DNA of 58,907 nt, counting the filler, from Sluysia triapertura (taxonomy: Eukaryota): assembly GCA_046118255.1 (NCBI GenBank). It is 4 parts of 4 records of this genome, joined end to end, with 100 filler letters (N's around TTAATTAATTAA, not from the genome) between each part and the next. Parts side by side here need not be neighbours in the genome. Positions count along the whole stretch, not along the records: positions 47,346 to 58,907 come from JBJNIA010183402.1; 3 more parts are not named here. One strand, written 5' to 3'. A model generated the notes under the pieces. That model saw nothing but the letters and a program-made list of their open reading frames with translations, was not told the DNA's origin and made no database searches. Shown here piece after piece: positions 10,954-58,907 of this stretch; positions within the stretch are counted from its first letter, which is position 1; each line of letters begins with the position of its first letter. A program made the translations under genes and the position numbers.

Positions 10954-11309
10954 AGTAACTCACAAAACAAGTGCTGTGCCATGGATAACAAATGAAATTA
11001 TGCATGTATAACGTCATTCATTAGATAACTATTAGCTCAGAAGTATTCGATAAGGAGAAAGTAGTTGCAGGATTTTGCATAACTTCAGTGTTTTTTATGC
11101 ATAAATTAATTCCCAAATTAGTTGAAATTATGTCAATTTATAGATGTAAATTAAAAATATTGCATGATAAATTTTTGCTTATTTAAATTTATAATCTACT
11201 TACACATTTTATTTTGCAAAATATGTAGATCCAATATATCATGCATTAGAATATTAAAGTACAAATGAAAGAACGTCATTGAAAGAAACGATCATTTGTA
11301 ATTACTTAC

Positions 11310-26300: not shown

Positions 26301-29300
26301 TATTTATAAATCAAATTGCTTTTAAAGTATTAAACCAAAAGTTGAACACGCTGCGTTTTGGGCAGAAGTTGATAATGGGTGTTTTGTCGCTTATCTGTTC
26401 TTGCCAGTGTTGTGTATCATCAAGTTGTATAATGTAGAATATATATTATTCAGGCGTAATTTATCATCAATTTTTATACAAGTTAAAATAAACAATTTTG
26501 TCTCATCAATATATTTTTACTAACTTATAAGCACACATATTGTTACTGTTGTCATTGCCGATATTATTTTGCAAAATTATTAAGTAACGATCAATAATTT
26601 ATGATCTTAATTTAGCAAAACATCATTTTATTTGATAACGTTCAAAACGAACAAAATTTATCATTCAATGAATAATCCGGTGATTCTTGGATATTAGTAA
26701 CGTTAATTAATGACAATTTGTCGGACATAAGGTTTAATTGTGATTACATAAAATCTAATAGTGAATGCTGAAATTAATGACTAAATCATTTTGATAATAC
26801 TCGAACCACTCGATACAATTCAAGTAAATACTAAATCCACTAATTCTGTTGATCGTGAAAAATCATGTTCTGTTGTCGCAATCACCGAAACCATTAACAG
26901 ATGAACTCTTGAATTATGAAAAAACTCTTTAATGAATAAATTCATTTGAATCAGATGTTTCAGTAACTAAATATGCAACAAAATTGCAAAAAGTGGTTTT
27001 GCAGATTTAAATCAAGAATTTCTTGACTAATTTTGTGAATCTAAATGAATTTGCTAGTAATAAAGATCACAGATGTAATGAAGTGTTTCAGAGTTTTATC
27101 AATGATTAGAATGATTAGATGATTAGAATCAACAAGATCTCGATAAAAATAAGTCATTAAACTTTGTAAAATCATACATCGTGAACAATGAATTAAATGA
27201 TATAATCAAACGCCAAACATTGTAGAAAAATGCAAAAAAATCGTTGCAGAATGTTAGATTTATTTGATATTATTTATGTCATAAAATTCATAGTTTTAGG
27301 TCAATTACCCGCAGGCCTTAAATTTAATAATTGAATTTTATTTTAATAAGGAATTACAGAGTAAAGGACAAAATCAAAAATAAGGAATTACAGGAGCAAT
27401 CCTAATTTGAATAAATTCTTAGACGTCAGGACCCTCAAATTTTAATAAAGTCCTACCTATAATACTAAAATCCTCATCATCATAATTATAATTATTGTAA
27501 GATTACGTAATTAATATAATAAAAAGTTTGAAATAATTTATTACATACTTAAAATTGGTATCTTCATTAATCCTCTGAAGTGTTTCCATTCTTCTTGTAC
27601 AGTTTTTAATTCATGGCTACTCATAGTTCCTTTCATAGTTCGAAGATCAAGATTCAAATTATTCATTAAATATCGATATAATGCTAATAGTTGTTGATCG
27701 TCTGTAGTAAAAATAACCATTCTTTTTAAAGATGCTTCTGTTACTTTGAGATAATCATGAATCATCTTAAATGCATGAGATATATCGTCGCATTCTACAA
27801 TTGTCTAAATTTTAATACTTTTGTTAAAATTTAATATTCTTAACTTTTTAATACATATAAAAATTAAATAAATTTATTTTAATACATTTTTAACATTTGG
27901 AATCCAAAATCAAAATTTCTAAACATATATTAATACACAGACGCAACTCGTCATAACATAACGATCATGTGTACATTAAAAATAACTACATGAGATTTTT
28001 ATAAATAGAATTAGAAAATAGGTCATAATGCAATGTTTTGGCAAATTGAATCACAATTACATACTTCATACCATAATATTCGTCAAAAGAAGATTATGGT
28101 AAGTGTTTAGTGGTCTAGCGCAGATGTGATTCATTATGACTTCATGAAACCTGGTTCATCGATCACAGCAAAAACATACTGCAACTAACTTGATTAAATG
28201 ATGCAAAAACTTCAAAACCAGCCCCTACTGATCAAAATACATATTCCTAAAAACAGTGCACAAACGATTGTGACAAAACTATAGGAAACGAAGTTGAAAC
28301 TTCATCATCCTCCATACTCACCAGACCTAGTCCCCACTTTTTAATATGAAAACAATTTAATTCCGACAAAACTATAAGACTTCAATGACTCTTATCCGCC
28401 AGAGTTTTATACCACCAGCCTGAATTAATTGTCGCTTAAATGGCAAAAGTGTAGACAATTTGTAAACAAAGTATAAACAATTCCTTATATTTGTATGTTA
28501 TCAATCAACTATGCCTTTTCTACAAATTTAATCCTTGACGATCTGATAAATAGAAGAATATTTTTGTTTAATTTTAAACTTCGCCACAATTTAAACTGAG
28601 TTGTGACTTTGATTTATTATAATTGAATCTTTAATTTAAATTGGTTTAGAGTTGAATTTTAAATTGGCTTATCATATTGACTTAATTTCCTACTGGTTTA
28701 TAATTGAATTTATTATTGAATTTATAATCTGAATTGATTTATATTAATCTTATATCTTGAATCGAGTTACCATATTTGTTATCAAAACTTAAAAATTAAA
28801 TATAATTTCAATAGTAATAATAATGCGTTATGTTTCCTGCTACAGCCATTAAACGAAGTAACGAAAGAACGAAAAGAGTAGAAGACCAAATAAGTTAAAA
28901 ATAATAATCGTCAACAATAAATGACAAAAATTAGAATAAAAATATTTTGTTCATTAATTTTAATTTTGCTTTTTTGATGTTAATTTTGTTCACAAAACAA
29001 ATTATATTATTAGATACTGTAATAATATAAATACAAATAATAATATTTTATTAAAAGTGTTTTATGTACATATTTATAAAATTGTGTGATGTTTTATAGT
29101 GGCATGGTAAATATAGCAGATTAATTTCGTTACTATCAACAGTGAATTATCTCTTCAACTTGAATACAAAATAAAGCCAAAGAATTAATATTGTCTTACC
29201 ACTTGTATTTTAACAAAATGGCTTAGGCATCATATTCAGTTTTGTGATAGTCTGTAAGCAATGTTTATAAACACTTAAAAATTTAATAGCTCAAATTTAA

Positions 29301-32300
29301 CAAAATATTAATTAAATATTTATTTTAATTATTAAAACCATCAATTCCAAAGTAAATTTATTTTAATATTTTTAGATTTTTTATAACGCTTGAATATAGC
29401 TCTTGTTTAAATCCACTGAAGGTTTTAACAAAATTTCGAAATCGTTTACAGATTCAATAAGCTTTAAAATTACTGTAAAAATTAATTTTTAATTAATTTC
29501 AATAATTAATGATTCCGTGATGTTCTACCAAACACAAAAACCCTCTTTGGGTGTAAACCATTTTGAGTATTCGGTGTAAAATGTTGACTTATAAAAATAT
29601 TGCAACATATAATACTCATTTTCATTTCAATTCTTTTCAAAAAAGGTTCAATATTCAACAACCGCTAATATGGTTTAACTTTTACTTCCACAAACCCTAT
29701 ATGATTTAATGATTTCTCTATTACCCCATTTTGGGGGTAATTTAGCCTTGTTCCCCTACCGCAGCTCTAAGGATACTGAATCTATTCCAAGACCTAACAT
29801 TAATGAAATAGACTTGACACTTGGAAACACAAATACAATCGTCTTAGATAATTTGAAATAACTTGTAAAGACACTAAAAATGAGGTGTTTTGGTTCCATG
29901 AAAAATCTCAATTGTTGAATATTGAATCTTTTTTAAGATAATAGTTACGGGAAATGAAAATGAGCATTATGTTGCAAAAGTCAACATTGTCAAGCGATTA
30001 CTCAAAATTAGTTTTTTTCACTAGAGTCAAATTATAAATTACTGAAATTGGATGAACACTATCATGTAGCATCTATTGTTAGAAATGAGACTAGAAAATG
30101 GTGCAGATCAATCAGAATTTATTGGTAGAAAGTGTAATTTTACTTCATGACAATGCAACACCACACACTTCAAAAGTCAGTCTATGTTTTAATAGAATTT
30201 ATATTTAAGATCCAAGATATATAGCGGATATTATCACTTCCAAGACAAAATTTGAATTGGCTAAAGCTGATGTTTAAATATTTCGGATCCTAATCGAAAG
30301 ATTTTTACAGCAATGTTATAAAAGTTACAAAAAATTTCGGTAACAAAAGTCACCATAATCAGGGGTTTTATTTTGATTAAATACATGTAATTTTTATGTT
30401 CCTCACTTTCGTGGTTAATCAATACCACGAAAAAAATATTGCTAAAATTTACCATATTAATTCGTAATTCAACATTTGTTGCACTATAAATTCAATTGCA
30501 AATTTGAAAGGATTAATCATAGGGTGAAATTTACTACCACTATCTTTAAACTACTAAATACCACTTTCACAAGCTCAATACATTTTTATAATGCAGTATT
30601 CCACATGATTTTTATTGCAAAAGCACTACTTTTCATAGGCTCGATTTTACGTACTTCGATATTTAAAATTCGCATTTTTGTTTAAATAATTTGACCTAGT
30701 CACTCAGTCAATAATTTCAATTTTAGTGAGTTTAACCATTATTTTTCTCGTATACTTGGGATTTAGTAAATGTAGTTTTCTTACGATTTCTCTATTTAAT
30801 TTCTAAGCACTAAATATTTTTATTATGATTTGATGGAAAAATTCTAACTATTTCTTATACACCTGCATTGTAAAAGCAAGCTTAATAAAATTTTAATTAT
30901 TTCTCATTTTTAAAATAATTGCTAAAAGTAATAATTAATAAATCAGCTGTTCATCTATGATTCAAGAAATTTAATTATTTTTAATCAGATGTTAAGAAAT
31001 AATAAAGAGATGTTTTTAATGCATCACAGATGAATTATATGCCACATTTTGAAAAAAACTTGCTCATGCTAAATATTTAATTTCGGAATTACGATCAGTC
31101 ATTAAAAAAAGGAACTACCAGTATTAACTCAATTTCATTGCCTGATCATATAGTGTAACCGGATATATTGGGCATTTATCTTATCGATGACACATTACCG
31201 ATTAACATTTTGATCCAGCATTTCTATTTTAAAGATTTCTTAAGTTTTTAATTGTATGTTCTTTCTTTACGGAAGATATAAAAACGCAATTTAACTCAAT
31301 TTTACTTTATGCTAGTAATAAAATCTTAATTTCAAATTTAAAGTAGTAAGGTCTAAACCTTTTTGGAATAAATTATACTGTACTTAACGAGAATATGTGA
31401 CTAGATAAACGACAAAAAATCAGAAAGATCCTCCCAAAACACAAGTTTTTGCCTTTTAATTCATAATAAAATCTTACAGGCACAATAGTAGGATGCAATT
31501 AAGACATAGATAACCAATTTGTAAGCATATTATGTTTAAAAATAATATATATAATATCATAGCAATTGTAATGAAAGTATTTTTTTAATTAAATACCTAT
31601 CGTTATTATTATTATACATTAAATACTAATAATTTAATTTATTTTGATTCAATTTTAATATTTAAAAAAAATATAGTCTTTGTACTCTGAATATTTAGTT
31701 TATTAATTTTTTTAATTTAAATTAACCTGATTTAATCTTTCGAAAACAGCTATTTCAAGTGGATCGTTAACAATCAACGAAAACCTATCACCCATAACAT
31801 TTTTAACAAAAGATTCGATACCAGATGTCCAGTGTGTTGCAGTAATTATTTTTTGAGGTTCATATCCACACTCAATGGAAGCCGTCTGTTTATAAAACAA
31901 TATTTCACGTAACTCATCTAAGTGATAACTAATTAATATATCTAGGTCGTCAAAACACAAGAAGCGTAAACAATCAAATTTAAAGACACTAAAAGTTTTT
32001 AACAAGCGCAATAAAGATGACGGTGTAACAATCAAAATATCACATCCATTTAAAATTGACATCATTGTTCGGTGCTCAACTTCCCCAGCATAACAATATA
32101 CTATTCTTGGTTTGCGAACTTTATCATTATCCACTTGAAATTTTAGTAACCTCGCAGCTGAATCTGACATATTCTTAACATTCTTCCACGATGAGCAAAT
32201 AATAACTGCTATTGGATTAAATTCAGTACCTCTGTTTACATTTTTTGAAGTTATCATTTGAAGAATAGGCATCAAAATACCCATCGATTTTCCTTTTTCT

Positions 32301-33651
32301 TTAGGAGCTATTCCAAGAACATTGATTCCTCTAAGAATTGTTGGAATCATATATGCCTATTACATTTCATTAATTAATTAATTTAAATTACCTGTAAATT
32401 TAATAGTGTTTTTGATTTGTAATAATCCATTGCTGACTTTATAAAACCAGCAAGATATTTATCATTTTGATAAGACACAATCGGTTGAACTGGTTTTTCA
32501 TATTTATAAGTCACCAAATCACCTTTAGTTTCTTTAATTATATACCATCGCTTAACTAATCGCTCTAAATCTGAAATATAATTTTGATTTCTGTTTGATT
32601 GCAATAGAACATCCTGAGATTCTAAACAGGAATTATTAAACAACTTTTTATACCTGATGTCACGGCAGATAACTTTGAAATTGAACTATGACTATTAATT
32701 TTAGAATCCGTAGATTCAACTTCCAAATTAGTTGTGGAATGTGAAAATGAACCTGTAATTTTAATTTCCGAGTTTTCTATTAATAAATTAGAAATAGATT
32801 CATTTGATAGGGAACCTGTGCTAAGAGTTTCAATATCTTTATAATGACATTAAAAAATATTGTAATACCTTTACCTCTAGTGTGCTTTTCATCTTCATGT
32901 TGTACTGCGTAATTTTCTGATACTAAAAGTTCAACTAAATTCCATTGTTTTCCATTGTAAGTTACATTAACTTGCACTCGAGCTTTATCAAACATTTCTT
33001 GTAAATAATGCACTATCACATTTAAATTGTTATCTGAAAGGAAACACTTTTTTTAATAACTTAATTACCTTCGAAAAGGTTAACAATGAATTTATAACTC
33101 CTATGATCCCATGAATTCCCTTTTCTATAAAATTATAATTTGAACAAACATTTTACTCTAATTCAGCTTGAAGATGAGGTCCATATTCACGAATACACAT
33201 ATTAACCGGCGTTACATTAGTGACTTTATATAATTTTGCAGCTGCATTAGCACTCATCAATTCATCATTATTAATATTATAAAAACTAACTGATTATACT
33301 TAATAATAAAAACAACTTACTTTTGTTTTTCAATATTTTCAATCCTGGCACAGTCGACAAGAACACATCTAAAGGTAATTTAAATGATTTAGAAAAATAC
33401 TTAAATGTATTAGGATTAATTTCTTTAAAAGGCCTTCCTCTATACAATTTTCGACAGACATTGACAATATAAATCTAAAACAAATAAATAGCATTTATTT
33501 TAAAAACCTTCTGTAAAGAAACTTCATTAGCACTTTTTAAATCATCTTCTGTTAATTCATCGATTTTATCAGTTACATATTTATGACGTGCTTGATCAAT
33601 ACCTAAAAATTTATCAGGAGCAGATATACTTTTGACTAATACTCTCGACAT
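11310..33651 (-). CDS. TDRD12: TDRD12 / Yb-family piRNA biogenesis factor (Tudor - DEAD-box-like helicase - CCCH-like - Tudor); 3' end not resolved
   Basis: Phase-consistent GT-AG exons: 33508-33651, 33401-33474, 33321-33368, 33157-33285, 33069-33124, 32875-33033, 32654-32815, 32392-32621, 31727-32356, 27549-27804, 16487-16794, 16009-16152, 15809-15974, 11747-12077, 11310-11603. Motifs: LQAYMIPTILRG, GKS, CDILIVTPSSLLRLL, FDDLD, IITATHW, FSSRLHCL, CPGIKSFGECKLPTCDKRH, VRLIDNG...PQAIEVYLVGIRPLD, IGSTLWVD. This is the TDRD12 domain order. Confidence 0.88.
14955..15090. mobile_element. piggyBac-like MITE
   Basis: TTAA|CCCTTT ... AAAGGG|TTAA; 136 bp with a TTAA target duplication. Confidence 0.5.
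17190..17560 (-). mobile_element. MULE-like transposase relic
   Basis: Minus strand reads ...FKLHWWNVGPYNMRKHYSRGLYYEIN, similar to the WN.......RTNN..EG.h..iN segment of MULE transposases. Heavily decayed. Confidence 0.35.
18830..19080. repeat. (TAA)/(ATT/ATC)n low-complexity microsatellite
   Basis: Runs of TAATAA and ATTATC/ATCATT; these explain the spurious Met/Ile-rich ORF at 18924-19130. Confidence 0.85.
20440..21070 (+). repeat. dispersed repeat copy A encoding an unidentified protein fragment
   Basis: Diverged direct repeat of ~26590-27220; differences between the copies are mostly synonymous in one + frame (FESDV...KVVLQI.IKNFLTNF...CNEVFQSFIN...NELNDIIKRQ). Confidence 0.7.
21400..21540 (-). 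mobile_element. MULE-like transposase relic
   Basis: RTSHF..KWN*RFK...WK resembles RTNN..E.WN.rF....W. Decayed. Confidence 0.3.
26590..27220 (+). repeat. dispersed repeat copy B (homologous to 20440-21070)
   Basis: FESDVSVTKYATKLQKVVLQI*IKNFLTNF...CNEVFQSFIN...NELNDIIKRQ. Confidence 0.7.
28080..28460 (+). mobile_element. mariner transposase catalytic-domain relic (cecropia/Hsmar1-like)
   Basis: QKKIMVSV*WSSADVIHYDFMKPGSSITAKTYC...HPPYSPDL...EFYTTSLN*LSLKWQKC, with internal deletions. Confidence 0.85.
29560..30008. mobile_element. foldback / MITE with ~100-bp imperfect terminal inverted repeats
   Basis: 29560-29663 (TTTTGAGTA..AATGTTGACTT..TTGCAACATA..CTCATTTTCATTTC..TTCAATATTCAACAA) is the reverse complement of 29909-30008. 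Confidence 0.7.
30040..30260 (+). mobile_element. mariner transposase relic
   Basis: ILLHDNATPHTSKV (HDNA motif) at ~30135-30177. Confidence 0.65.
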
Positions 33652-38397: not shown

Positions 38398-41300
38398 ATG
38401 CAAATTATAAGAAAAAAGGATGGTTCTCCAAATCAAAAATTTTATGAAAATCCAGAAATAATTGCTTTATTTGATACTGTACGAACATGGTTAACGAGAA
38501 ATTGTAAGAAGTATTGGCAGAATGATCCTATGACAAATAAAAGCTTGGCTACTTTATGTAACCAATTATTGCAATTTCAAGAAGACATCTTTTGTAAAGT
38601 AACTGTGTTATAAAATTTATCTATTTTTAGTCGAATGAAAATATTTTAATGAAATTACCCACTCATTGTTTCTTCGATTTTAAACCAAGTGGTGGTTTAA
38701 GCCACATATTCTCCAGCTGTTTAAAATTTAAATCTGAACAAGGTGTAAGAAGGTTTGATTTTCAGTCTCCTGCAAGGTTAGAAAAGAATGTTGATATGTT
38801 TAAACAAATAAAGTCCGATCTTGAAGTGCACAAATGTTGGGAAACTCCAAGGATTTGGTTATCACCTTCTTTATTAGGAGTAATTTACAAATCTTATTAA
38901 TAAAATTTAGGATGTTCTTAATAATATTACTGCTGCTATTAAAAAAGTAAATTTACAAACTGTTGATAATCCGAATGATGCGACCCACTTACTTTATCAT
39001 AAGCATCCTAAAGTAATGTTTGCAGAAGATATTGTTCGAGTAGTAGTAAGGGAAGGTCGTGGCATTATGGTGCATTGGTTGTGGACTCCAGAAACTCATG
39101 ATACTTGGTTTACAGGTTATTTTTAATAAATAAATATAAGCTTTCGTATTAGGAATAAGATTAGGTTATTTTAATTATATTGTTGAGTTTGTTCCACGAG
39201 TTTTTTTAATTTTGAATGTTTCATGAATTTTTAGTGCACTACAATTGCATTACACAATGAAGAGTAAAACTTAATATTTCGTTATATTAAAACTGTAATT
39301 GGTGTGCACATTTAATTTTTTTAAATATAAAATAATTATACAGTCAATTTCACATAAGTTTCTTTTCTAGTTCGTTAAATACCCGATAAGGCTTATTCGA
39401 TATTAAAATTAAATGTCGTATTTGTATCATCAGTAAAATATAATTATGATCGGTGTTGTATTTATCGATGTTCTATAAACTGAAATAAAATGAATTGATA
39501 TTATGTTGAAGTTTTTTAAAATGTATTTCAATAATTAAAAAAATCAAAATTAAAATTTAATTGATTTTATGAAATGTTTAAAATTTAAAAATAACTCAAT
39601 TTATTAGTATATTCTTATTGTAGGAATACCAAATGATGCTCAAGTTAATCCAGAACCATCTATTAGACCTTCGGTTGGTGGCAATCAGTTATGGGAAATA
39701 GATTATAGATGGTTAACGATGTCTGTGGATAATCATGAATGGTTGTGTGAAGAAGACTTCTTGCTACCTCCAAATGATCAAGAATTTACAAAACAAACAA
39801 ATCGTAAACCTATTGTGCAGAGAAAATTTTTTACCGGTATTATGAACGTTAATTGTAAATTAAAAATTATATTTGACTATTGTAATGTATAATTTAATAT
39901 TTTATTTTGAAATAAATTTTAGAAATACTAGAATAAACCACCAAATACTTGTTTTAATAATTTTTATATTTTACATAATAATTTCAGCCGAAGAATTAAA
40001 TTCATTAGTTATGTCTCCAGCAATAGTCAATGTATCTGAAAGAAAAGATAAGAAAAAACGTAAACTATCACCTTCTCCATCTACTAAAGATGATAATACA
40101 ATTAAAAGAAGAAAGCAAACAACTGGACGCAATTCAGCTGCCAATGCAAGGCGGTCAAAAATTAAAGAAGATGAAGATTTTGAAGAAGAAGACGTAACAA
40201 AAGATTTAGATGATCCTGAAGCTCCTAATAAAGTTGAAGAATTTTCTATGAGCAGTGTTGGTGGTAAAAGCAATCAACGAAGTGGAGCAAATGCAGCAAA
40301 TAATGTATTGTTAGATTTGGATGAAGAAACTCAAGGATCAGGTTTGCAGAATAACTATTATATTTTAACTATTGTTGAATTTGATATTCATATTGTATTT
40401 AATGTAAAAAAGTTTGATGTTTAATGACAATTTAAAATTAATTTTTAAGTCATGATACGTTTTATTTAGTTATAATTATTTTAATAGAAATATTTGTTTA
40501 ATGATGTAAAAATAAGTCGAAAAGTTTTATTGTAGCCACAAATAATATATCAGCCAATGGAAACCATATAAATGCTGATGAATCGTTCAATGCTGATATG
40601 AGTGTAACGGAACAAGCTCATAGCATAATAATACCAAGTTATTCAGCTTGGTTTGATTATAATTCTGTCCACGTTATAGAGCGTAGAGCATTGCCTGAAT
40701 TTTTTAATGGTGAAAACAAAAGTAAAACGCCTGAGGTTTTTATGGCTTATCGGAATTTTATGATTGACTCTTACAGGCTGAATCCACAAGATTATCTGTC
40801 GTTTACATCATGTCGAAGAAATTTAACTGGCGATGTTTGTGCTATTTTAAGAGTGCACGCATTTCTGGAACAATGGGGACTTATAAATTATCAGGTAATT
40901 ATGATTTTACTAATTAAAGTAAACTACGCAATTCATGATTTTAGATTGATCATGAAGGTAAAGTATCTGCTGGTGGATTAGGTCCTCCAAATACTAGTCA
41001 TTTTCATGTTTTAATTGATTCTGCCACTGGTTTACAGTCACTAGGAAATCAGGCAAGTTCTAAGGCATTAAATTCAACAGACAAAATTGGTGTTCAAAAT
41101 GTCAAAGAAAATATCACTCCAGAAAGTATGTTAGGACAAAATAAGGTTTGTAATTCTTTTGGTTTAATATTAATTTAGACTGAACCAATAGAAAATTCTG
41201 TGTCTAATCAAATTCATGATCCAACATTTCAAACAGATCAATACATGAATACTGGGGCGAAACCTAGTTCTGATTCATTACACGATTCTCATTTAAATAA

Positions 41301-44300
41301 CAAAGAATTCCCCATTGGACTTCAAAGTAGATCTAAAGATTGGTCAGATCAAGAAACCTTTCTCTTATTAGAAGGATTAGAAATGTATAAGGATGACTGG
41401 AATAAGGTATCTGAGCATGTGGGTTCGCGAACACAAGAAGAATGTATTTTATACTTTTTAAGATTACCCATTGAAGATCCGTACTTAGAGGGTGATGAAG
41501 TATTAATGAAAACACTAAATTACCAACCGATACCATTTTCAAAATCTGGAAATCCAATAATGTCTACAGTTGCATTTTTAGCTTCTTGTGTTGATCCTAG
41601 AGTTAGTTTAACATTAATTTAATCAAATTAATAAAACGTTGATAATTTTATTTCATTATTGCAGCAATAATTTCTAATATCATTTAAATGAATGTAGCAT
41701 CCATATAATTTTTTTTCTTATTAGTTTGTAAATAAATTAGTGTGTTGCGCCAAAAATTTTGTAGTACAAGCCTAAGTTAGGTTTTGTAATTCAGAAAGTG
41801 CATGAACAAAAGGTTAAAGTACTACATCCAATACACCTAGTACCAAATTGGAGCTATTATGCTTTTTTCATAAGGTAGTAATGTGACAAAGGATTATATG
41901 CAATTATATGACAGTTGAAGCTTATAAAATAGTGCTGATAAAGTATGTTTTTAAAGCCTTTCTAAGATATTTGTAATGTAGTAGTGGAATTTTCAAAATT
42001 CATTATTTAAAGCACAAAGTTGGAATAATTAGGTCGTTTTTTTGTTTTTTCCTTGAACCTAATCAAAAAATATAATTTAAATGGATTCTTCAGTTTCCAG
42101 CTTGAATCGTTAAACAGGAGTACATGTTACGCAATTTTATGTAATTATTTTCTTATTAGTGTCAATAAGTATTATATAATTAAAACATCTATTATCTAAC
42201 TTAGTTGTAGCTCTTAATTCAAATTTTAAGTTTAATGTCTTGAACTATTAAGTACTTAAATTTTGTTTAAATTCAAAAAAATGATCATAAGATTTTGAGA
42301 ATGAAGTTTATGAGTAATACATTAAATTCTAAAAATTTAGGAGGGTTTGATAAATTAAAGGATTCGTTATCTAAGTCAAATATTTTGTGATTACTTATTC
42401 TGAAGTAATGATTTAATCTTATGTTTTCATTGCCAGTGTTTATGTTTAGATAGACTACCTTTACTATTTCTAATAAATTAAATCTTTTGAATTTTAATGG
42501 AATAATTCAGTAACTTAAAGTATGATGGTCGTCAAAAGATTTTGTGTGAAAATACGTTTTTAATTGATTGTTAACAAGTTATTTACGTTTGATTTGAATC
42601 TTTAAATAATTTAAACTGACATGATGTAATAAGAAATTTCTAAGAAAAGGTGCAAATACTAAAGAAGTTGTGCCGAAATATAGATATTTTTATCTAATGG
42701 CGTACTTGAAAACTTACTTGAAAATTCTATTGTGTCAGTTCTAATAAATTGAATTATCTTTTAATGTACCCAAAAAAAATCGTGTATAGTGTAGGATTCA
42801 TTTTGTGTTTGTTTCCGCGTTAGCTAAACTGATTTTTCTATAATTTTTTAAACTGCATCATGCTAATTTGTAAATAGTTTTAATCAAGCCGTTTTAATCT
42901 TGTCAATTTATATTCAAAATAATTATTTTCAAATGGGTGCTTAAGTTTTTAAAAATAAACGGAAAATGTATTTTTCTATAATTACAATTATCACGACATT
43001 TTAAATAAAGTTATTAATTTATTTTTTAGATTGCCAATGAGGCTGCTAAAGCTGCTTTGAATGAATTTACTCGGCTCAAGGAAGAAGTACCTGAATATAT
43101 GATTAAAGAGCATAAGGCGAAAGTAGAAGCAGCAGTTGAATCAGGAAAGGATGTAGATGTGAATAAATTTGGTCTAGAGAACATTGCTGGTCAAGAAAAA
43201 GACAAAGAAATAAATGAAAACAAAGAAAGTGAAGTAACATCTGATAATCAAAATAAAGAAATAACCGAAACAGTAAAATCTGAAACAGATAATAAAAGTA
43301 AAATATTTAAAACTAAATTTTTTGGATTTCAATTAATATTGTACAATTTCAGTTGAGACAGAATCTCGAACTGAATCTGAAGAAACTGAAAAGATGGATA
43401 CAGGTGATTCTCAATCTAATGTTGTTGCATCAGAGGGAGATAAACAAGTTCAAACTAATCAAATTTTAAATCAACAGCAAACTGCAACACCTGGTGAAAC
43501 TGAAGACAAAACCAATAAACAAAAAATTGACAAATTAAATGATGAACATTTAGCAAATAAAATAGAAACAACGCAAAACAAGAAAATCAATAAAGATTTG
43601 AATTCTAAGCAATTGGCAGAAGCAGCGAGTGTTGCATTGGCTGCATCTGCTACAAAAGCAAGATATCTAGCATTATCTGAAGAGAAAAAAATTAAAGGCT
43701 TGGTTGCACAATTGGTAGAAGCTCAACTAAAGAAAATGGAAGTAAAGTTAAAACAGATTCAAGTAAATTTATTATACATCTTATAATTTATTTTTACTTA
43801 GGAATTAGAATCGATAATCGAAAGGGAATATGAGGTTCTAGAACAGCAGCGTCAACAATTACTTTTAGACCGTCAGGCATTTCATATGGAATTGTTAAAA
43901 ACAGTTGAGTCACGTGCACGTGTAGTCAGTCAGAATCAGTATCATAATCCTGGTATGGTTGGAACAATGGTAGCGCAAAATCAAATGATAAATACAACAA
44001 TTCAACAAAATACAACTCTTCCACAACAATTAAGTCACACTTCTCATATTTTGATTCCTCAAACTCAGCAAACACAACAACCTCATTCACAAGGTATGGC
44101 ACCCAATGTTATGGTAGCACAACAATCGCAACATCAACAAACTACCCCATCTCAAATACAGATGCATCAACATATGCAACAGATTATTCAACAGCAATTA
44201 CTGCAGCAACAAATTTCTGGAGGTTCTGTAAACCCTGGAAGTTTACAAGCTCCACATCTCTATCCAAACAACACAACTGTACAGCGAAAACCTACAGAAA

Positions 44301-44509
44301 CCGTTATCAGTAATAATTTTTCTCTTACTAACACATCTAATACTACTCCCGTGACAAATGCAGTTTCTGATGCACCAAATAATTCTGGTGATTCTACAAA
44401 TGCTGCCAATAGCGCAGTTATCGGAAATAGTGCACAGACCAATTTAGCTGTAACTGCTAGTGTTTCCATTGAAAATACTAGTACAAATAATACTTCTACC
44501 CCATCGTAA
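38398..44509 (+). CDS. SMARCC2: SWI/SNF (BAF) core subunit SMARCC1/SMARCC2 (BAF155/170, Moira/SWI3)
   Basis: Exons 38398-38598, 38631-38879, 38911-39115, 39624-39836, 39988-40341, 40536-40894, 40945-41145, 41179-41601, 43030-43297, 43353-43762, 43802-44509 (all GT-AG, phases consistent). Motifs: N-terminal [11 protein letters not shown]; SWIRM ([12 protein letters not shown]...[15 protein letters not shown]); SANT ([30 protein letters not shown]); [18 protein letters not shown]; leucine zipper [14 protein letters not shown]; Q-rich tail. The SMARCC1 versus SMARCC2 assignment is nominal. Confidence 0.96.
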
Positions 44510-48790: not shown

Positions 48791-51002
48791 CATGATACTA
48801 GTTTATCTGATCTTACTCAAACAAAATGATAAATACCTTAAACAAACAAAAAAATTTGGTAACAATATTTCATAATGGCAAGCATAAAAACTAAATTAGG
48901 CATTGTTGATCATCTTTCTCTCAAGTTGTTATACATAGTGCGGCTTTTGAAGAAATTTACCTTATCAATACTATAAATCTTGAAAATGTAGAATTTATAA
49001 TTCCGATTCTACATTATTATATACTGAGTTGAAAGTTAAAAAATGTTGGAGCTAATTTACTTGATAAAGATTTTAATATTACATCAAATAAGTGTTTGGA
49101 AATTTAATCCTTCGGCTACGTATATATGCGTTTCAATGAATTTCTGAAGTAAAAATATGTTCGCATTTTATTTGCGCTTAGATGTCGCTTTTTCATTATT
49201 TCAAATATAAAAAATAATTTTTTTACAGTTTTCTCTCCAAAAATTGTATTTTTCATATGTACATATTCATCATTTCATTCATAAAATAAATATTACTTTT
49301 CAAGTGTTTTTTGAATAAATAAAAAATATTATATCTCAAAACTAATGCCTAACGATTATTTATCGGAATACAGAAATTTATTATTTATCTAGTGACGAAG
49401 AAATTTCATCACAAAACAACTTCGATTGGAGGGAAGAAAGGATACTCTATGTATGTCTAAAAACTGTACTGTTGCTTTTGTATTGGTGAATGCTTCAAAA
49501 TTTACCAAATAAAACTTCATTTTTAATTTTATGTTATATTTTACTCAATTCTATAATAAAACGAAGTCTTAAAATTTTTTATTTTTCTCAAAAAAGCTAC
49601 CAACCAAATATTAAATTTATATTGTTTATTAATTTGGATACTTAAGGTTAGTACTTTATTAATTTGATTAAAAAACATCAATTTATGATAAGAATTATTA
49701 AATTTATAAACTGTTAAAACATTTATCTTTCTAAAAATGGACTTAAGGTCCTTTAATCATATAAATTGAACAAAAACACAAAAAAGACCTTATATATTAT
49801 ATGAATTGGCAAAATAAAATGATAAAACGAGAATCATAAATAAAATAACAAACACTACTGTTTATTTGGTACCATTTCCAACCTAGAAAATCAAGTTTCG
49901 GCAATCAGCAACGTTTCCGGCAACACAACATATAGGTTTTGATATATTTTCCGAGCGATTTTCTTGCCTCATGAACAACCTAGTTACCAATTCTTCGATA
50001 CTATTAAACGCATCTATACTAAAGCTCAATAATTTAAACGACTCTAAATAAAACATAATCGTATCGTGTCCTCTAACTGACACCATGAATGGTCAAAAAG
50101 CTTGTTTCTCGCAAAACATCACAAGCATATAATCTTTTAGTCTTTAATCAACGTGAGTTCAAATTTAAAATTTTAACTAGTCTTTGTGTTTCATTTTTTA
50201 AAGGCAATATTGCTATCGACATAAGAATCTTATTATGATTAATTAATTTAATGTTACACGATGTGCTTAGTGTTTCACGTGTGGTCACACGTTTCACAAT
50301 TGTTGCCAAATGTGAAACGAACTTAACACATTTTGCTCGATAACTGTTTGTCTGATAATTTAGAAAAAAGAAACATGGAAATTCAGTAAGTAAATCACTT
50401 TGAGAACGTTTATTATAATGTTTTAATTTATCTTGAAAATTGAACAATTTGCAGCATTTATTTATTTAACATAAAATAAATATAAGCAACAGTTTTTCAA
50501 AACATTCTTTTATCCGATTAAGAACAATTTTCGAAATTACTTATATTTATTTTGAATTCCTCTAGAATCCCTCACAGATTCCATTATGATAAATATTTCG
50601 TCTCTATGAACATCATAATCTATTTTAATCTATTTAAAACTTGCATAAGAAAACTCATAATTGAAATTAAAGTCTCATACGCTTTCATTGTGAAAAATGC
50701 AACATCTTAGAAGTACTTCCAATATTTGTCTATTTTCAAAATACACAGAAAAATATAAAAATAAAAATAATATTAAATTCATTCATTTAAATTCATTATT
50801 AAATTTTATTTATTGTAATATTTTAGGTTTAAGACCCTCTAAACGTGTTAATTGTAATATTTTAAAGTAAATTAAGTAAGATTTTTTACTTTTAAGTTAC
50901 AGAGGTACCAACTACAAGTTCTAAGACGCTTACTGTAACCGGACCCTGCTCATTTTTTTATTTTGCCGTAGGTTTAGTATTAAGAAAAACCACAGCAAAA
51001 TT

Positions 51003-51020
51003 TGGCGCCCGAATTGGGAC
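51003..51020 (+). promoter_or_regulatory. primer-binding site, tRNA-Lys(UUU)-type
   Basis: TGGCGCCCGAATTGGGAC matches the canonical Lys3 PBS TGGCGCCCGAACAGGGAC at 16/18, 5 nt after a CA. Confidence 0.85.
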
Positions 51021-52475
51021 AAACATAAATGTAATTAACGTTGAATTTTTCAAGATTAAACTGCATTTAGACAGTATTAAGCGAATTTAAGTTTTAAATG
51101 TTTATGTTTTTGTCGCATAAATTGAGTTTTGACGACGTTTTTGTCATTTTTGTATTGAATTTTTAGGATTAACTATAATTACAGACTAGTAAGTGAAGTT
51201 AAACATTGAATTTATACGTTTTAACGATTTTTAAGTTACGTTTTTACGATTTGCGTTATAACTCGATATTAAAATTTGAATTTTTGACAGTTTTAAGTTA
51301 GTATTTAAGTCTTAAGTTTGAATTTATGCAAGTTTTTTGATCGATTTATATTTTATAAGTTGTTTTCTACGTTATTTCAAAAAGATTTTGATATAAGTTT
51401 GAATTTTATTGTTATTGAGATTTTTAAGCAAGTTAAAATTAAGCTTAAGTCGTTTGAGTTTGTATTTTTAAGATATGTGTAAGTTATATTGCATATTTTG
51501 TGATTACTTTAAGTTTCCACTAAATTTAAGCTTTTGAATTGTGAATTTTAATAAGTTTAAGTTATGTCCCATATTTTGATAATTAAGTCAAGTTTTCATT
51601 AAGTTTAAGTTATTATAAGTGATTATTTTGATAAGCATTTGATAAGTTTTAGTAGATTTTTATAAGTTTTCATATAAGTTTAAGTAAGAATTTATAAGTT
51701 TCTTAAGTAATTACCCTAATTTTTATAAGTTTTTTACGATTTATTTAAGTTTGACATTAAGTTATATAAGTTTAACCGTTATTTTATGTTATTTTATAAT
51801 TATTTCATTAAGTTTTGTAGTATTTTATAAGTTTCAGTTGATTGTTTGAATTTTATATAAGTTTTAAGTAAGTTATAACCCTAATTTTGATAAAAGCTAA
51901 GTTTATAAGTACGATTTTCATGCGATTTTCTTAAATTAATGTATCTTTTTGAAGTTTATCTAAGTTGTCTATAAGTTTTCTTGATTTGATAAGTAAATTT
52001 TTTACGTTTTTTGATATTTTATTAAGTTTTATACTATTTTTATACGATTTTTAACATTATCCCACGAAGTTTTACATTAATAAGTCTAAGTTTTACAGTT
52101 TATTTGATAAGTTATATAGTTTAAGTTTGATTATAAGTTTATTTCATTGTTATTAAGTTTAAGTTATTGATAAAAGCTTCCCCGATTAAGTTTCATAATA
52201 TTTTGTTAAGTTTAACTGAATTTTATTAAGTTTTTCTGATTTAAGTTTAAGATATTTGATTCCGATTTAAATTTTTACCCTTTTGAATTATTATTTAAGT
52301 TATTAAGTTTTGATATTTGACTAAGTTTATCTTTATTTTGATAAAGAAGTTTGTATTAGAAGTTTATTTTAGAAGTTTGTATTTAAGTATTTAAGTCTTC
52401 AGAATTGATACACGAGGTTTAATTGAATTTACTAAAGAAAAGAAAAAACGTAGAAGAAATCATTCTTTAAATAAG

Positions 52476-53879
52476 ATGTCTTTACCTATAGAAGAATTTA
52501 GAGACTGTGTGTCTCACTTTGCTAAGGATATTAGGCCTACTATGACACTCCCTGAAATAAGAAAATTTAACGGTGCAGAGGAAGAACTATGTGACTTTCT
52601 TTTTGAATATAATAGTGTTGCAGAAGCAAATGGGTGGACTGAAATTGAAAAAATTAAGCATATACAAAATTAACTGGAGTTGCGATCCAGACTTATAAGG
52701 AGATAGATAACATTTATAAGTAAAATTGGCAAGAATTTGTAAATGCCTTCACCGAAAAATAGCTCTCGACGATATGAGAAAGTATTACAATAAGATGCTC
52801 AATGTAAGAAGACAAAAGAGTAAGGAAACTGTATATGAATTTGCATGCACATTAAAGTCTTTAGTAGCTAGAGCTAAAATTCCTGATGATAAAAAGGAAA
52901 ACGTTTTAATTGATAAGTTAAAAAATGGCCTGAGCTCAGAGTTAAGAGCGTATGCAAGTCTAATTGATGATTGACCTTTTAGAGATATTGTTAAAAATTA
53001 AGGGGCATCGAGAAATCTCGAGCTGAAGAAAAAGATAATATAAGTTACGTAAGTGATAACGAAGATAACTATAAAAATAGAAATTTTAAGAAAATGGAGT
53101 CCCCAAGATTTGAGTTTTAGAATTTTAATGATAATCATTTAGACTATAGAGTAAATAATTGTAATCCTACCAATCCTAATTTTAGAGGAAATAATTTTAG
53201 AACAAATAGAGCTCCAAGGTATGATGATTCTCAAGGCGGTAAAAATAATTTTAGAGAAGATAACTCTCCAACTTTTAGAAATAACAATAATTTTGGTTTT
53301 GGAGGTAATAATAGAACTTCAGGCTTCAACAGTTACGAATAAAGACCTGCACCGCGTTGGCTAAGTTCGGATGGTGAATATTTTGATCGACAAAATAATA
53401 GTAGTAACACTAGAAATAGGAACCCTTTTAAATTTAATGATAATAATCACTATAAGACTCAGACAAACATAGAAGGAAATGTAATATGTAATAACTGTGA
53501 TAAGCAAGATCACTATGCCAGAAATTGTAGAAAGTTAAGGACTGACACTTTAAATCAAAATCTCACCAAAATGCAAAATTATTCGAGAGGGACAAGTTCT
53601 GATAGAAAAGTAAGATTTAATGACGTTATGAATAAGAGTAAAGGACAAATAAATTATAATTATAATAAAATGCGAAATAGTTGCAATAATTACGAAGAAG
53701 AAACGTACGGAAATTATAATTCTGATGAAGAAAACTATAGGAGAGCAATGGAATTTAATAAAAGACATAAAGACGGATTTATTAATGAGTTTTCCAGAAT
53801 AAAAGTAGATGGTGACGATGATGATGAAAAAGAAGATAGATATAACAGACAAAAAGAAGAAGAAGGTGCATTATCTTGA
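52476..53879 (+). pseudogene. gag: retrotransposon gag (capsid + CCHC knuckle), disrupted by frameshifts and stops
   Basis: PEIRKFNGAEEELCDFLFEYNSVAEANGWTEIEK..., RQKSKETVYEFACTLKSLV..., and CNNCDKQDHYARNC (53487-53528, CX2CX4HX4C). Confidence 0.85.
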
Positions 53880-55620
53880 ATATTTAAAAAGAAAAAAGGA
53901 ATTGAAAGATAAGGAGAAAGATAACACAACAGATGCGGAATCGATAAGAAGTGAATAACTCAAAACAAATTCTATAATCAGTGAAGACGAAAATTCCAAT
54001 ACAAATGTAATTATTAACGAAGTTAGCTTATAAAACGAAAGTGAACCAGGACTAATAATTGTACCTGCCAATGAAGAGAGGAAATTAAATACACCAAAGT
54101 TAACTAAAAATGAAGAAATTAAGGCATTTCACTTAGATTTAAATCAAGAAATCTCAAATACAACAAGTATTGATAAAAATCTAGATGATTTACTCGATTC
54201 ATATTTAAATATGCGAAATGGACGTAGCATTAAATCTAATTTAGTTCTATTAAGTAAAGACGACAGCCCACATAAGTTTAAAGCAAGCAAAGTATCTCAC
54301 AAAACTAGCCGACTAGAAACAGTTGAAATACCCAAAGCATTAATGAATATTAAGATAATAATTAATTATTTAATGAATGCTAATATGTAAATGCCAGTTA
54401 CTACAAAGGTTGAGGAGATTATTAAATTAATTAAGTTAAGTGATCCGCCTATGATAGATATCAGATCATATTTTCACGATATAAATTTGTTACCCGATAA
54501 ATTTTTAAATAATTACGATTACCTTATTGGAATTCATGACGAAGCATTGAAAGCTTCTACTACCTATATGACTCAGGGTAAGCCCATTGATAATTTAATT
54601 CCGTGTGAGATTGTTATTGATAATATTGATTTAGATAATTTTCCTAATTCCTTTAAGAAGCAACTGATGGTTGATAACGATAATGTAGTTAATATTATTG
54701 ATGATAATAATTATAATATGGATAAGAAATTGGATTTAAATGATAACCCTAATGTAGAAACAAGCTATAAAGAAATTAATACTTTTAAGAGAGAACCTAG
54801 TAGGTCAATAAAAGTTGAATATAATGATGATGTAACAGTTCTGAATCTATTTCATAGAAATGCCATAGATTTAATAAAATTTATTTGCGATAGATTAAAT
54901 AACAAACTTCATAACAAGCTTAATTTATGCATTATTCTCCAACAAATTTGATGATTTTGATAAGTTTAAGAAAATACTCCCTATAATAAAAGACTATGGA
55001 TTTACATTAATTAAAATAATGAAGCAATTAGATGAAATCAGAAACTTAGGCAAGTTTATAGACACAAGTCAATATAAATTAGTAATTAATAAACAAATAA
55101 ACTCTGGTCTAAATAAAGAAAGACTTAAAATTATAATTGATTATATTGTATTCCGGTACGATAAGGTTAAGTTGCTCACTGTAGAAAAACTTCACAAAAT
55201 AATAAACTTTATAGATACGAAATTTAAGTTGATGATAGACAACCGAGGTGGCTGGAGAAACATAATTAAAGAGAAAGAAAACAAGATATTAATGGTACCT
55301 TCAACATACTTAATAATAATAACAAAACATTGAGTTCTATTGTACCAAGATTAGGAAATTTTGCGAATAATATTTTTTTATCATTATACTACTCATCATG
55401 CTCAAAATAAATAAACGAAAAAGAACGAAGACATTTGAGTTTAGTCAACCATACACAGGAAGAAAATTTTCATTATTATATAATGAAGATAGTTCCGAGC
55501 CAAAATCTAATAAAATAAGGATTAAGGATAGAATGTATTTAATAGCATACCACCCCTTTTTGCGCCAACTTCTAAAATAATGTCGGTTATAACCACACAT
55601 TTTTCAGAAGATTCCGACAA
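53880..55620 (+). pseudogene. broken A-rich reading frames downstream of gag, with possible integrase traces at the end
   Basis: ORFs 54391-54951, 55019-55333 and 55398-55580 have no protease or RT motifs. LMVP...IITKH, IAYHP and YNHTF (55280-55610) loosely follow gypsy integrase motif order. Confidence 0.35.
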
Positions 55621-56291
55621 AGTGAATTTAATTATATTTATGGCTATTTATAATTAATAATAAAAATTATTTTAAATTCTTCCTTTGGTTAAAATTAATT
55701 AAACTATTAATTTTAATACAGTTTATACTTTGTATATACTTCGAAATTAAGTAGTAAAATAAAAACATGAGCAAAGCAAGCCACAAGACTAGCATTGGAT
55801 TATATGACTTTTGTACCAGTAATTACGCAATCATTACATAGGAAAAATAAACTTGATACTAAACGAGATTTAGGTACTAACAATAAAAATATCACAATGA
55901 AGAAATTAATCAATCTAATCCCAACTAATATTAAATATAGTTTCAATACTACAATTATACAAAATCCTGCTTTTTATTTCTCATGTTACTCTATCCTTGT
56001 AATGATATTTATACTTTTCACTCTGCTTGCAACCAATCTTACGGTTGGAGTTATTAGATTCCATCTTTTTTTAAATGACAACGTAAACATGTTCTAAATT
56101 TTAGGAAAAGTATATTCTTCAATTAAATAACCTGCCTGTGGCAGTGGCATCACTATTTACCTGGCCTTAATTACTCGAAAATATACAATATCTTTTCGTA
56201 GCATCACCGGCAAATACATTAATAATTTTAGGATTTTGTTAATTTTCCATTAAATTTAATGAATTTCATTTAATTCGACTTAATTCCTTTT

Positions 56292-56792
56292 ATGGTATTC
56301 ATTTTTATATCTCTTCAATTTTGCTCAATCTGCCTTAGGCCTCTACGCAAATATAAAGCTCGCGTGATGTCTTGCACCCATCGCTTCCATTTTAGGTGCA
56401 TCTTCTTTATGACAATGCGCCTACTGACTATCCAACCCGGCCCTTATGTAGATCAACTATTACGTCTTGTAAAATTTTCTACAAAAAATCGATATAAACA
56501 TCAATATATTTTTGATACAGTTCATACTTCATCTTCATCATCTCTGGCACTTACTTTACTTTCTATTACTGTTTCTCAACCTTCTGATATAACTTGTCTT
56601 CCTTCAACTTCCACTTCTAATCCGCAACTTATTAAGCCACCTGTTTCACACCCCTCTGCCCTCACAAAATCTCAAAAGCGACACAGGCGGGAAGAGAGAG
56701 AGCTGAAACGTTTCTACAAGGTCAATGGTCTTTATAAAAAACGAAGAAATAATAAAGCCAAACCTTTCTTAAAACGCACTGGTCTCTCCTAA
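56292..56792 (+). pseudogene. RING-H2 zinc-finger ORF (frameshifted) inside the LTR element
   Basis: CSIC-x13-CTHRFHFRCI, then in a shifted frame YDNAPTDYPTRPLCRSTI (CPLCR with C>R, 56438-56461). Ser/Thr-rich linker and basic tail. Confidence 0.7.
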
Positions 56793-57436
56793 TTTTCTCT
56801 TTAAATTACGTATTTAGGCTGTATATAAATGATGGTTTATTAATAAAAATAATTTACCCTTATCAATTTTTGTGTTTGTATTTTATTTTGTAATTATGTT
56901 TTTATCTTCTTTTTATGTACATGTCACGTAATTCTAGATATCACAACCCAATGAAAAAATCTTTTTTCAAACTAAACCGTTTTATGGAGGCATTGACCAC
57001 TTTTCTAAACATAATGCCCCTTCTACTTCATTTTTAAATTCTAAATCAACCCCTAACCCTCTTAAATCCGAAATTAATGAAAATTTTGCCAAACATCTTT
57101 TTAGTTTATCGTTACTATTAATAAATTATTGGGTTTTTCAACAAACCACAGTTTTATCATTTTGGCAGCCTCACGAGGTGTTCTCAAGGTTACTTTGATA
57201 AGTAATTCTTTCCCTCTTCTTTTTCGTCTTTATGAGTGTTCGTCTTTGAAACTTGACAATATTTACCCTTCTCATACTATAAAAGTGGAAGCTGACGAAT
57301 ATCCCACAACATTTGCAGCACTTTTTCCTATCTTCCCTAGGAAGTCGAAATCGTATCTTATTCCTTTGTGAAACATTTCAGCGCATGGCAAGAACATTTA
57401 ACTTTCACCCATATTTCGTTCTTGCTCACTTTTTAG

Positions 57437-57900
57437 GAGAGCAAATTAATCTTTGTGGCATTCCACCACGTCTTAGATGTCAATAATGAACATCAAATTA
57501 TTCAGTTAGGTTTCATGCCCTACCATAGGAAATTTCATTCTATTGATATCATAAGACCACGAGTTCGCGTCCAGAATTTTTACAAAGAAATACACGGACT
57601 CAATGATCAAAATCTAACATCGCCTAAGAACATTGAAGACATTAAGAGCTTTTGGCTCGCATCTCTGTACGACACATTTTTGGTTTGTATTTACCCCGAA
57701 TTGGTTGTAAAAACATTAAATATTCCTTATGGTTGGTTGAGAGGAATGGTAAACCTCACCAATACCCATATCATGTCTTTCACCCGCCGATCCCATTATC
57801 AGGAGAAAACAAGTCTTAAAGTTATTATATCCATTTTTACCTAAAATGTCTTGTATGGATCTCATTCAGAACTCGATTCTCTTGTTTGATCATCTTAGGG
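57437..57900 (+). pseudogene. DEDDh/DnaQ exonuclease-fold domain lacking catalytic acids
   Basis: KLIFVAFH...HQIIQLG...FHSIDIIRPRVRV...KEIHGLNDQNL...FLV...TSLKVII...HSELD follows the DnaQ pattern (v.iD.E; IIeiG; i.P; iHGitde.L; lVaHN; sL..l; HrAldD). Confidence 0.55.
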
Positions 57901-58380
57901 CTATAGATCCATCTTTCCTTACGAAATGTCTGTCTTTACCCCTTCCTCTTTCTTCTTTTACTTCTTCTATTCTATCATCTCCTTCATACTCTCTTCATCC
58001 TTCTCCTCTTCTTATTCAACTACTTAGCTCCACCGAATCCGAGTCCACAGGCCAATTTATCGATCAATTCAACGCGCCGTCTCCTTATCATCCAGACTAC
58101 CAACATCAAGAATCACTGGTTCCATCGTGTGCCACAAAACATCGGTCGCCATGAGTCGATCTGGATGACTCCGAAGATGAATGGCTTAGTCCAACGGACA
58201 CTTTATATTGTTGAGACGAAATGAACATAGATATTTTTTAACATTTTCAATGATTCATATAATAATATACCTGATAACATAATAAATAATATGATTTTAT
58301 AAATGAGTATAAAATGATTTTAGTGTATGTACATTTTATTTTTTTTATAAATTTTTCAAATTTGTGGACAAATTTTTTTT

Positions 58381-58394
58381 GAGGGGGAAAGTGG
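58381..58394 (+). promoter_or_regulatory. polypurine tract
   Basis: T-tract followed by GAGGGGGAAAGTGG, immediately before the TG that starts the LTR. Confidence 0.75.
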
Positions 58395-58758
58395 TGTTAG
58401 GTCTGCCATCATGACCCTTTACAATCTCAGAAAATGTTTTAAAATTATTTCTAAGTGTCAAAAAACACCTAAAAAAGAAATTTATTTTCTCAAAAAGAAA
58501 ATTTTCTTCTATAAATAGAATAGAAGCTTCTAGAATGTTCTAGATCATTCCATCGATTTTCATTGGCTGATGACTAGTACATAAACTAGCATCAGTTTAA
58601 TAAAAATCGCCATTTTAAAATAGTCAGCCATTTAATTTTTTAGTCTTTGTAATATTTCAGTCTGTCAGCCATTTTGGAAAATTCTGGTTCAGTTATGCGT
58701 CTTATTAAAATTTGGTATCGAACAACTTCGTTAAAGGATTTGTTGGGATTGTCTAGTT
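58395..58758 (+). mobile_element. 3' LTR (U3 part), interrupted
   Basis: Starts TGTTAG after the PPT; homologous to the segments starting at 5037 and 6980; contains ATTGG, TACATAAA and AATAAA. Confidence 0.75.
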
Positions 58759-58907
58759 CAGCGATGGCGAACCTATGACCCACGGGTCAGACACTGACCC
58801 ACGCAACGATTTCAAGTGACCCACAAGTTAATTTTTTTCCAACAAATTCCAAATTTTTTTTAAAATGTTTTTTCAAACAAATTCTTAATTCCGATTTTTT
58901 TTACAAA
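58759..58907 (+). mobile_element. hAT (Charlie/Buster group) transposon end inserted in the LTR
   Basis: CAGCGATGGCGAACCTATGAC..., like the CAGTGATGGCGAACCTATG ends of Charlie-type hATs, with subterminal TGACCCAC repeats. Preceded by GTCTAGTT, which fits the nTCTAGAn target preference at all but one position. Confidence 0.75.

Follow-up and report, generated by a model that had tools for sequence, protein, structure and literature searches.

Additional ORFs coding for proteins of the DEDD superfamily are known from LTR elements of bdelloid rotifers. In the available sections of Rodriguez et al. 2017 (PMC5408684), the DEDDy ORF3s of Juno and Vesta LTR retrotransposons and of Terminons are described as having kept their catalytic residues, and Maelstrom and EXD1 are treated as inactive DEDD derivatives that have kept RNA binding; the accessible part of Arkhipova and Yushenova 2019 (PMC6431247) reports DEDDy ORFs in Terminons as well as RING-type motifs in giant gypsy elements of planarians. 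With respect to inactive members of the superfamily, the available text of Zhang et al. 2008 (PMC2628886) defines MAEL by the residues EHHCHC and provides a precedent for a dead DEDD domain that binds RNA, and that of Cruz-Gonzalez et al. 2021 (PMC7968707) gives the topology of the DEDD core together with an ECHC site common to MAEL and arenaviral ExoN. The accessible portion of PMC10123124 deals with PML-like DEDDh exonucleases through which hosts restrict LINE-1. In the literature covered, which was mostly non-subscription and lay outside Repbase, we came across no LTR element described as carrying an inactive DEDDh ORF. Exuperantia is a further protein with a DEDD fold that lacks the canonical acids.

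Compared with these systems, the gene described here, which was found in a stretch of 58,907 nucleotides from Sluysia triapertura (analysed as a whole and referred to as the window), resembles the rotifer DEDDy ORF3s in being a supplementary DEDD-superfamily ORF that occupies the 3′ end of its LTR element and has a lineage-patchy distribution. However, going by the published descriptions, the rotifer ORF3s are RNase D-like DEDDy proteins with an intact DEED, whereas the window gene is DnaQ/PolC DEDDh-like and lacks catalytic residues; in addition, it has an N-terminal half of about 190 aa that belongs to no known family, and it follows a RING ORF. With MAEL of Maelstrom and with EXD1 it would share a DEDD-superfamily fold devoid of the canonical acids and, by analogy, a possible RNA-binding role. 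Unlike Maelstrom, it has neither the EHHCHC nor the ECHC residues, gives no Pfam match, and is encoded by an element and not by the host. From the DnaQ/PolC-type DEDDh exonucleases (PF00929; 2p1j), with which it shares by profile a beta2-beta3-alphaA-beta4 core and an equal spacing from ExoI to the second strand, it is set apart by the absence of the ExoI D/E, the ExoII HN/D and the ExoIII H, by a family motif IP[FY]GW.R, and by matches below the Pfam cut-off.

The window is AT-rich (21-34% GC) and of animal type, and consists of four pieces joined by N-linkers at positions 10854, 34468 and 47246, with the pseudo-nuclease gene on the last piece. An intron-split host gene on another piece (11309-33052, minus strand) comprises a DEAD helicase exon (31715-32356; PF00270, E = 1.7e-10) and a Tudor exon (11740-12126; PF00567, E = 3e-8), and we take it to resemble the TDRD12/Yb-type piRNA factors; inside this gene a 280-base repeat is present in two copies (20800-21067 and 26936-27216) that are 75% identical. 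A second host gene (39600-44506, plus strand) has SWIRM, Myb and SWIRM-associated domains and is presumably SMARCC/BAF155-like.

On the plus strand, positions 51003-58395 have the layout of an LTR-type retroelement. A primer-binding-site (PBS)-like motif seen directly in the sequence (51003-51020), which we assume to be of the tRNA-Lys type, is followed by a long leader that is rich in T and contains many short repeats of the TAAGTTT type (51200-52400) and by a broken gag-like ORF (52479-53879) with a CCHC knuckle at about 53484-53534, whose match to PF00098 (E = 0.004) is below the Pfam cut-off. A polypurine tract (PPT), likewise seen directly, is located at 58381-58394 and precedes a TG at 58395, the presumed start of the 3′ LTR. 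The features by which LTR retrotransposons are recognised, gag with a zinc knuckle (here below cut-off), PBS and PPT, are found in this order on one strand, and multi-copy dispersal is evident from 10,245 contigs of run X1 that align on 51000-58907. These contigs span the whole element stretch at a depth many times that of the window's own contig, and as run X1 may be the window's own sample they show sister copies and do not amount to independent support. A comparison of the region before the PBS with the region after the PPT did not reveal a matching LTR pair (101 of 300 shuffles reach the score), so that the assignment to an element class is based on gag, PBS, PPT and copy number; both ends of the element may be truncated or interrupted, hence possibly no LTR pair is visible. 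From the gag motif we take the element to be Ty3/gypsy-like. The location in a retroelement given in the preliminary description, which had been made from the sequence alone, is thus borne out.

Just 3′ of the PPT there is a very high-copy repeat (58431-58600; summed depth of about 197,000) with further copies at 5130-5259 and 6965-7104 on the plus strand; this could be the LTR itself, present in many solo copies, or else an insertion that has nothing to do with it. A second copy of gag (8928-9463, minus strand) has 66% nucleotide identity to the gag-like ORF; it falls within 8200-9463 (minus strand), a gag copy that is broken, shorter and from a related family, with no RING or pseudo-nuclease ORF nearby.

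In the stretch where pol would be expected (53880-55700, plus strand), protease, reverse transcriptase, RNase H and integrase were not detected, with no Pfam match to any of them over 52479-55801 in three frames read through stops; this element copy would be deleted, non-autonomous or too decayed for its pol to be detected. Open frames of 118-186 aa, rich in Asn and Asp and none of them convincingly matched in Pfam, occupy 53880-55330 of the same strand, and the bin 55224-55487 has a summed depth of 4981 in run X1, far above its neighbouring bins. Further downstream follows an open frame of 108 aa with one long hydrophobic stretch and no Pfam match (55771-56097, plus strand), possibly a third accessory or env-like remnant. 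The next ORF is a broken RING-finger accessory ORF (56274-56792), the RING of which, at about 56322-56411, matches PF17123 over the cut-off (E = 1.6e-7). Downstream of it, the pseudo-nuclease gene is the last ORF before the polypurine tract.

Intact relatives of this gene are rare. Searching 1,835,955,588 cluster representatives with the window frame by phmmer (E up to 0.001) returned two proteins, P0003 (365 aa, E = 1.9e-13, 35% identity) and P0004 (176 aa, E = 5.4e-5), both of them unnamed singletons without a Pfam family at E up to 5; P0004 does not cover ExoI, and, being seen as proteins alone, neither of the two need be borne by a retroelement. At 35% identity, P0003 keeps both the two-part layout and the missing acids of the window gene. 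In Pfam the window frame matched only DUF603 (E = 0.05-0.07), and as a single sequence it gave nothing useful in PHROGs, the PDB sequences or a word-based protein search (0 of 9 candidates). Longer fused forms aside, a search with P0003 found only its own members (1 of 1482), as did a three-row profile (1 of 1239), and no relatives turned up in viral contigs, metagenome contigs, prokaryote genomes or phage records. One phage gene (L017:765-1745) was rejected as a chance match, having one 10-residue word in common with P0004 and matching neither P0003 nor the window; it contains one ambiguous base near its start and we take it to be capsid-like.

The frame that starts at 57437 reads as initially described, with A-F-H at 57458-57466 in place of the ExoI motif, IIQLG, IRP, EIHGL..QNL, a hydrophobic strand without HN/D, and a TAG immediately upstream (57434-57436). 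However, the start of the domain at 57437 did not hold, as P0003 also matches further upstream, and the TAG lies inside a longer gene. Both ends of the whole accessory gene, which is broken in the window copy and extends over about 56935-57969 on the plus strand, are homologous to the intact 365-aa P0003. Its N-terminal part (56950-57099), in a different frame and of no known family, has 45% identity to P0003 residues 6-58 (E = 5e-5), and residues 196-309 match 57452-57793 with 36% identity (E = 4e-18); between them there is a weak match at 57243-57299 (p = 0.04). Because P0003 matches the window in two places and frames, the frame at 57437 is the C-terminal half of a gene that is longer and that frameshifts have broken. 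In line with these borders, two contigs of run X1 join 56934 to 57970 and so omit exactly the gene, the flanks being collinear in the gene-less copies. An origin of 56935-57969 as a TA-flanked DNA transposon was rejected, since terminal inverted repeats are missing; a short microhomology is common to the two ends.

The TAG had been proposed to be either a nonsense mutation or a splice acceptor. P0003 is a single open frame across the site, and four contigs of run X1 whose alignments end at 57437 or 57442 have other upstream letters and no stop there (as judged by eye, since the difference table does not judge positions near an edge). It is therefore best read as an internal break of the window copy, and a splice acceptor is not needed.

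At the other end, the assignment of the ExoIII motifs 'SL..I' (57812) and 'H...D' (57863-57877) is probably an artefact of the wrong frame: C-terminal to the core, the frame used there runs into three stops, the spacing between its His and Asp is 4 instead of the 5 of the references, and 737 of 1500 shuffles reach the score of its match to the tails of P0003 and P0004 (715 of 1500 for the third frame). These two tails agree with each other and match 57792-57917 in the next frame without gaps (14 of 1500 shuffles; corrected p of about 0.03 for three frames compared; tested singly, p = 0.0095 for P0004 and p = 0.15 for P0003). The true C-terminus thus probably lies, with moderate confidence, at 57792-57917, following a frame change between about 57790 and about 57812. 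The frame with this domain end continues into a low-complexity, Ser-rich tail that reaches 58154 and then into an acidic stretch (57920-58224, plus strand), a tail that P0003 does not have. As judged from these breaks, the window copy itself is a pseudogene that would be unable to make the protein.

With respect to the fold, P0003 and the profile matches delimit a DnaQ/DEDDh-like core with the order beta1-beta2-beta3-alphaA-beta4-helix-beta5, plus the motif IP[FY]GW.R, at 57437-57793. A profile of the three-member family, compared with 177,635 PDB sequences, had 2p1j, the PolC exonuclease of Thermotoga, as its only match at E < 0.5 (E = 0.0013; 0.0055 in another run), the other rows being two ribosomal S15 chains with E above 0.6. 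A reference profile was built from 13 DnaQ/PolC-type proteins, three from E. coli and 10 of 84 phage hits; of five earlier E. coli paralogues three were kept, and L003 and L004, which we take to be oligoribonuclease-like and exonuclease-I-like, respectively, were dropped. In what is a targeted and not a blind test, as this set was chosen after the DnaQ lead, the window frame scored 11.4 bits, P0003 12.4 and P0004 16.2, each above 1000 of 1000 shuffles, and hhalign aligned the family profile to the 13 proteins with a probability of 87.7% (E = 3.4e-6, 53 columns) as opposed to 0.14% for a reversed control; a first hhalign run against a poor alignment of the five E. coli paralogues had given 0.1%. 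The part of the profile match that is significant is limited to about 55-70 residues of the core; ExoI and ExoIII lie outside it, and their registers are extrapolated. For ExoI, 17 codons lead from the A of A-F-H to the Gly of IIQLG in the window and likewise in P0003, a distance also found in 6 of the 13 references between the ExoI Asp and the point where the IIEIA-type strand ends.

In the ESM Atlas, the closest neighbours of the P0003 domain were Arena_ncap_C (0.92), an unnamed bacterial cluster (0.91), RNase_T (0.91) and DEDDh_C (0.89), the whole of P0003 reaching only 0.75-0.76. AlphaFold models were poor (pLDDT 30 from the single sequence; pLDDT 42 and pTM 0.37 for a later model), so that the structure searches with the latter are uninformative: the seven best PDB rows of Foldseek were all DEDD exonucleases, none of them significant, and VIA-align had a best Z of 2.9 with no DEDD protein listed. 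The order of strands and helices predicted in this model fits the DEDD core topology given in the available text of PMC7968707. Overall, the domain very probably has the DEDD fold.

The canonical catalytic residues are lost. At the ExoI position (57458-57466), D-x-E is replaced by A-F-H in the window and A-V-Q in P0003, i.e. in both members that cover the site; in a global hhalign ExoI moves by two residues, in columns of low confidence, and there is still no acid. At ExoII (57689-57706), the alignment shows no H-N-x3-D in any of the three proteins, the Asp position being taken by V, I and I, and the Asn position is Asp in both intact relatives. The His of the ExoIII motif H-x4-D is absent before the last helix in all three, where the segment is shorter or diverged relative to DnaQ/PolC-type DEDDh, and the Asp position is Glu in P0003 and P0004 (two of three, in low-confidence columns). 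Intact copies with a canonical DxE..D..H..D had been considered as the sign of an active exonuclease; neither intact relative has it at the sites covered, P0003 being without the two acids of ExoI, the Asp of ExoII and the His of ExoIII. DEDDh chemistry depends on two metals held by four carboxylates, of which, by this alignment, at most one would remain, making a canonical nuclease very unlikely. The intact domains are only mildly basic (K + R 23 versus D + E 16 in P0003 191-352; 21 versus 18 in P0004), which counts against a role in nucleic-acid binding. Membership in Maelstrom was rejected, as there is no Cys in P0003 191-352 or in P0004 1-146 and no Pfam MAEL match.

We give about an even chance to the reading that this is an accessory gene of a multi-copy LTR-type retroelement, the intact members of which code for non-cutting proteins of the DnaQ/DEDDh fold that likely bind the nucleic acid of the element. 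An ancestral element would have captured a DEDDh nuclease, the metal site and the His-bearing segment would have been lost long ago, and the fold together with a family-specific surface (P-R, IP[FY]GW.R) would have been kept as a binding module. Its likely job might be to hold or shield the RNA or cDNA ends of the element, in the particle or in the germ cell, an RNA-binding reuse of the fold that may be likened to Maelstrom and EXD1; the N-terminal half of 190 residues, which matches no known family, may give a partner or a second binding surface. Binding of the element's own RNA or cDNA ends would be the simplest use, a proposal on which the case appears evenly poised.

Alternatively, the domain might be a rewired nuclease, in which a new or weakened active site made up of other residues trims the RNA or cDNA ends of the element, comparable to the 'active site switch' proposed for Maelstrom, for which the accessible text of PMC2628886 provides the precedent. 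The Glu at the ExoIII Asp position and the Asp at the ExoII Asn position of both intact relatives would leave residual catalysis possible, and there are two invariant arginines, R232 and R292. However, neither of these acids is retained in the window copy, the invariant D269 marks the beginning of beta4, a place at which several of the references also carry an Asp that is not among the catalytic ones, and with no Cys and only two to three His the intact domains could not form a zinc site like that of Maelstrom, so that this alternative seems unlikely.

A second alternative is that of a decoy in counter-defence, a dead fold that mimics a host silencing factor with the same fold (Maelstrom, EXD1 or a piRNA trimmer). 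It would bind proteins of the host, perhaps jointly with the adjacent RING protein acting as a ubiquitin ligase. The RING ORF directly upstream in the same element would fit this, as would fold neighbours that include the immune-suppressing exonuclease of arenaviruses and, weakly, MAEL (Foldseek rank 23), MAEL and the arenaviral exonuclease being sister branches according to the available part of PMC7968707. Yet the domain has no sequence match to the MAEL or EXD1 families, the ECHC site common to MAEL and arenaviral ExoN is absent, and the top Atlas match has 141 features in common, below the 170 typical of the same family. The resemblance to the arenavirus nucleoprotein exonuclease (PF17290), the top Atlas neighbour with top Foldseek rows at E of 0.37-1.1 that are not significant, is only a lead, since that protein is an active DEDDh with a zinc site and the window family has neither. 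Nor does the Tudor/DEAD host gene lend any support by proximity, which is meaningless because the gene lies beyond assembly linkers. Taken together, we regard a decoy as quite unlikely. A more elaborate form of it is distinctly improbable: an animal LTR element would encode both a Maelstrom-like pseudo-nuclease and a RING ubiquitin ligase, and the two genes would make up a counter-defence module by which the element RNA is shielded from the germline small-RNA machinery, or parts of the latter are degraded. If true, this would be a retrotransposon-encoded suppressor built by convergence on the host's own dead fold.

The non-cutting binding module would further imply that the dead domain has been maintained, on which the sister copies are informative. 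On 57415-57525 (111 bases), 22 contigs of run X1 were compared, a set limited to copies at least 80% alike of which 13 are less than 95% alike. Among the 10 differences listed, which were filtered (8% share; about 31 or more bases from the piece end) and are not mutually independent, seven are silent (57460, 57463, 57466, 57469, 57472, 57473 and 57478) and three conservative (two at 57470, one at 57476), compared with an expected silent share of 0.18-0.31 (P = 0.0005-0.012). Within the ExoI codons every change listed for the sister copies falls on a third position: no change was listed for the first two letters of the His codon, those of the Ala codon were judged in only three to four contigs, and two divergent contigs, not fully readable, differ at its third letter. 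Neutral decay of the window copy, offered initially as the alternative explanation for the loss of the catalytic acids, is disfavoured by this silent excess and by the A-V-Q of P0003, which together indicate an ancient loss common to the family, and purifying selection acting on the dead domain during the family's spread.

The same data bear on the possibility that the gene is a passenger, captured from a host or virus, useless to the element and in the course of being lost. This would agree with the several frameshifts and the stop of the window copy, with the two contigs that omit the whole gene, and with a summed depth in run X1 of 340-1490 over the gene region as opposed to 7,500-22,000 over gag; the env-like and GDSL ORF3s of rotifers, with mostly neutral variation within a genome, offer a parallel in the portion of PMC5408684 available (section 3.6). 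However, the silent-change excess among the sister copies and the existence of an intact 365-aa relative with the same two-part layout and the same acids missing make a mere passenger very doubtful. Finally, that the core is a local resemblance of about 55 residues inside an unrelated fold is highly improbable, as the missing Pfam match and the Foldseek and VIA-align results, obtained with the pLDDT-42 model, are countered by three different methods that indicate the same clan and by the predicted strand and helix order.

Should the accessory gene indeed code for a binding module, the retention of the fold and the loss of the metal site suggest that the property useful to the element may be binding and not cutting, and P0003, an intact natural member of 365 aa, makes binding, activity and structure directly testable. 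The gene appears to be a rare, unnamed and catalytically dead DnaQ-type accessory gene on a retroelement, a variant of the known theme of extra DEDD ORFs: extra DEDD genes on LTR elements are known from rotifers, where they are assumed to be catalytic, and a dead version of the DEDDh type did not turn up in the literature covered. Next to Maelstrom and EXD1, it would represent one more case in which a DEDD pseudo-nuclease arose independently, now on the side of the parasite.
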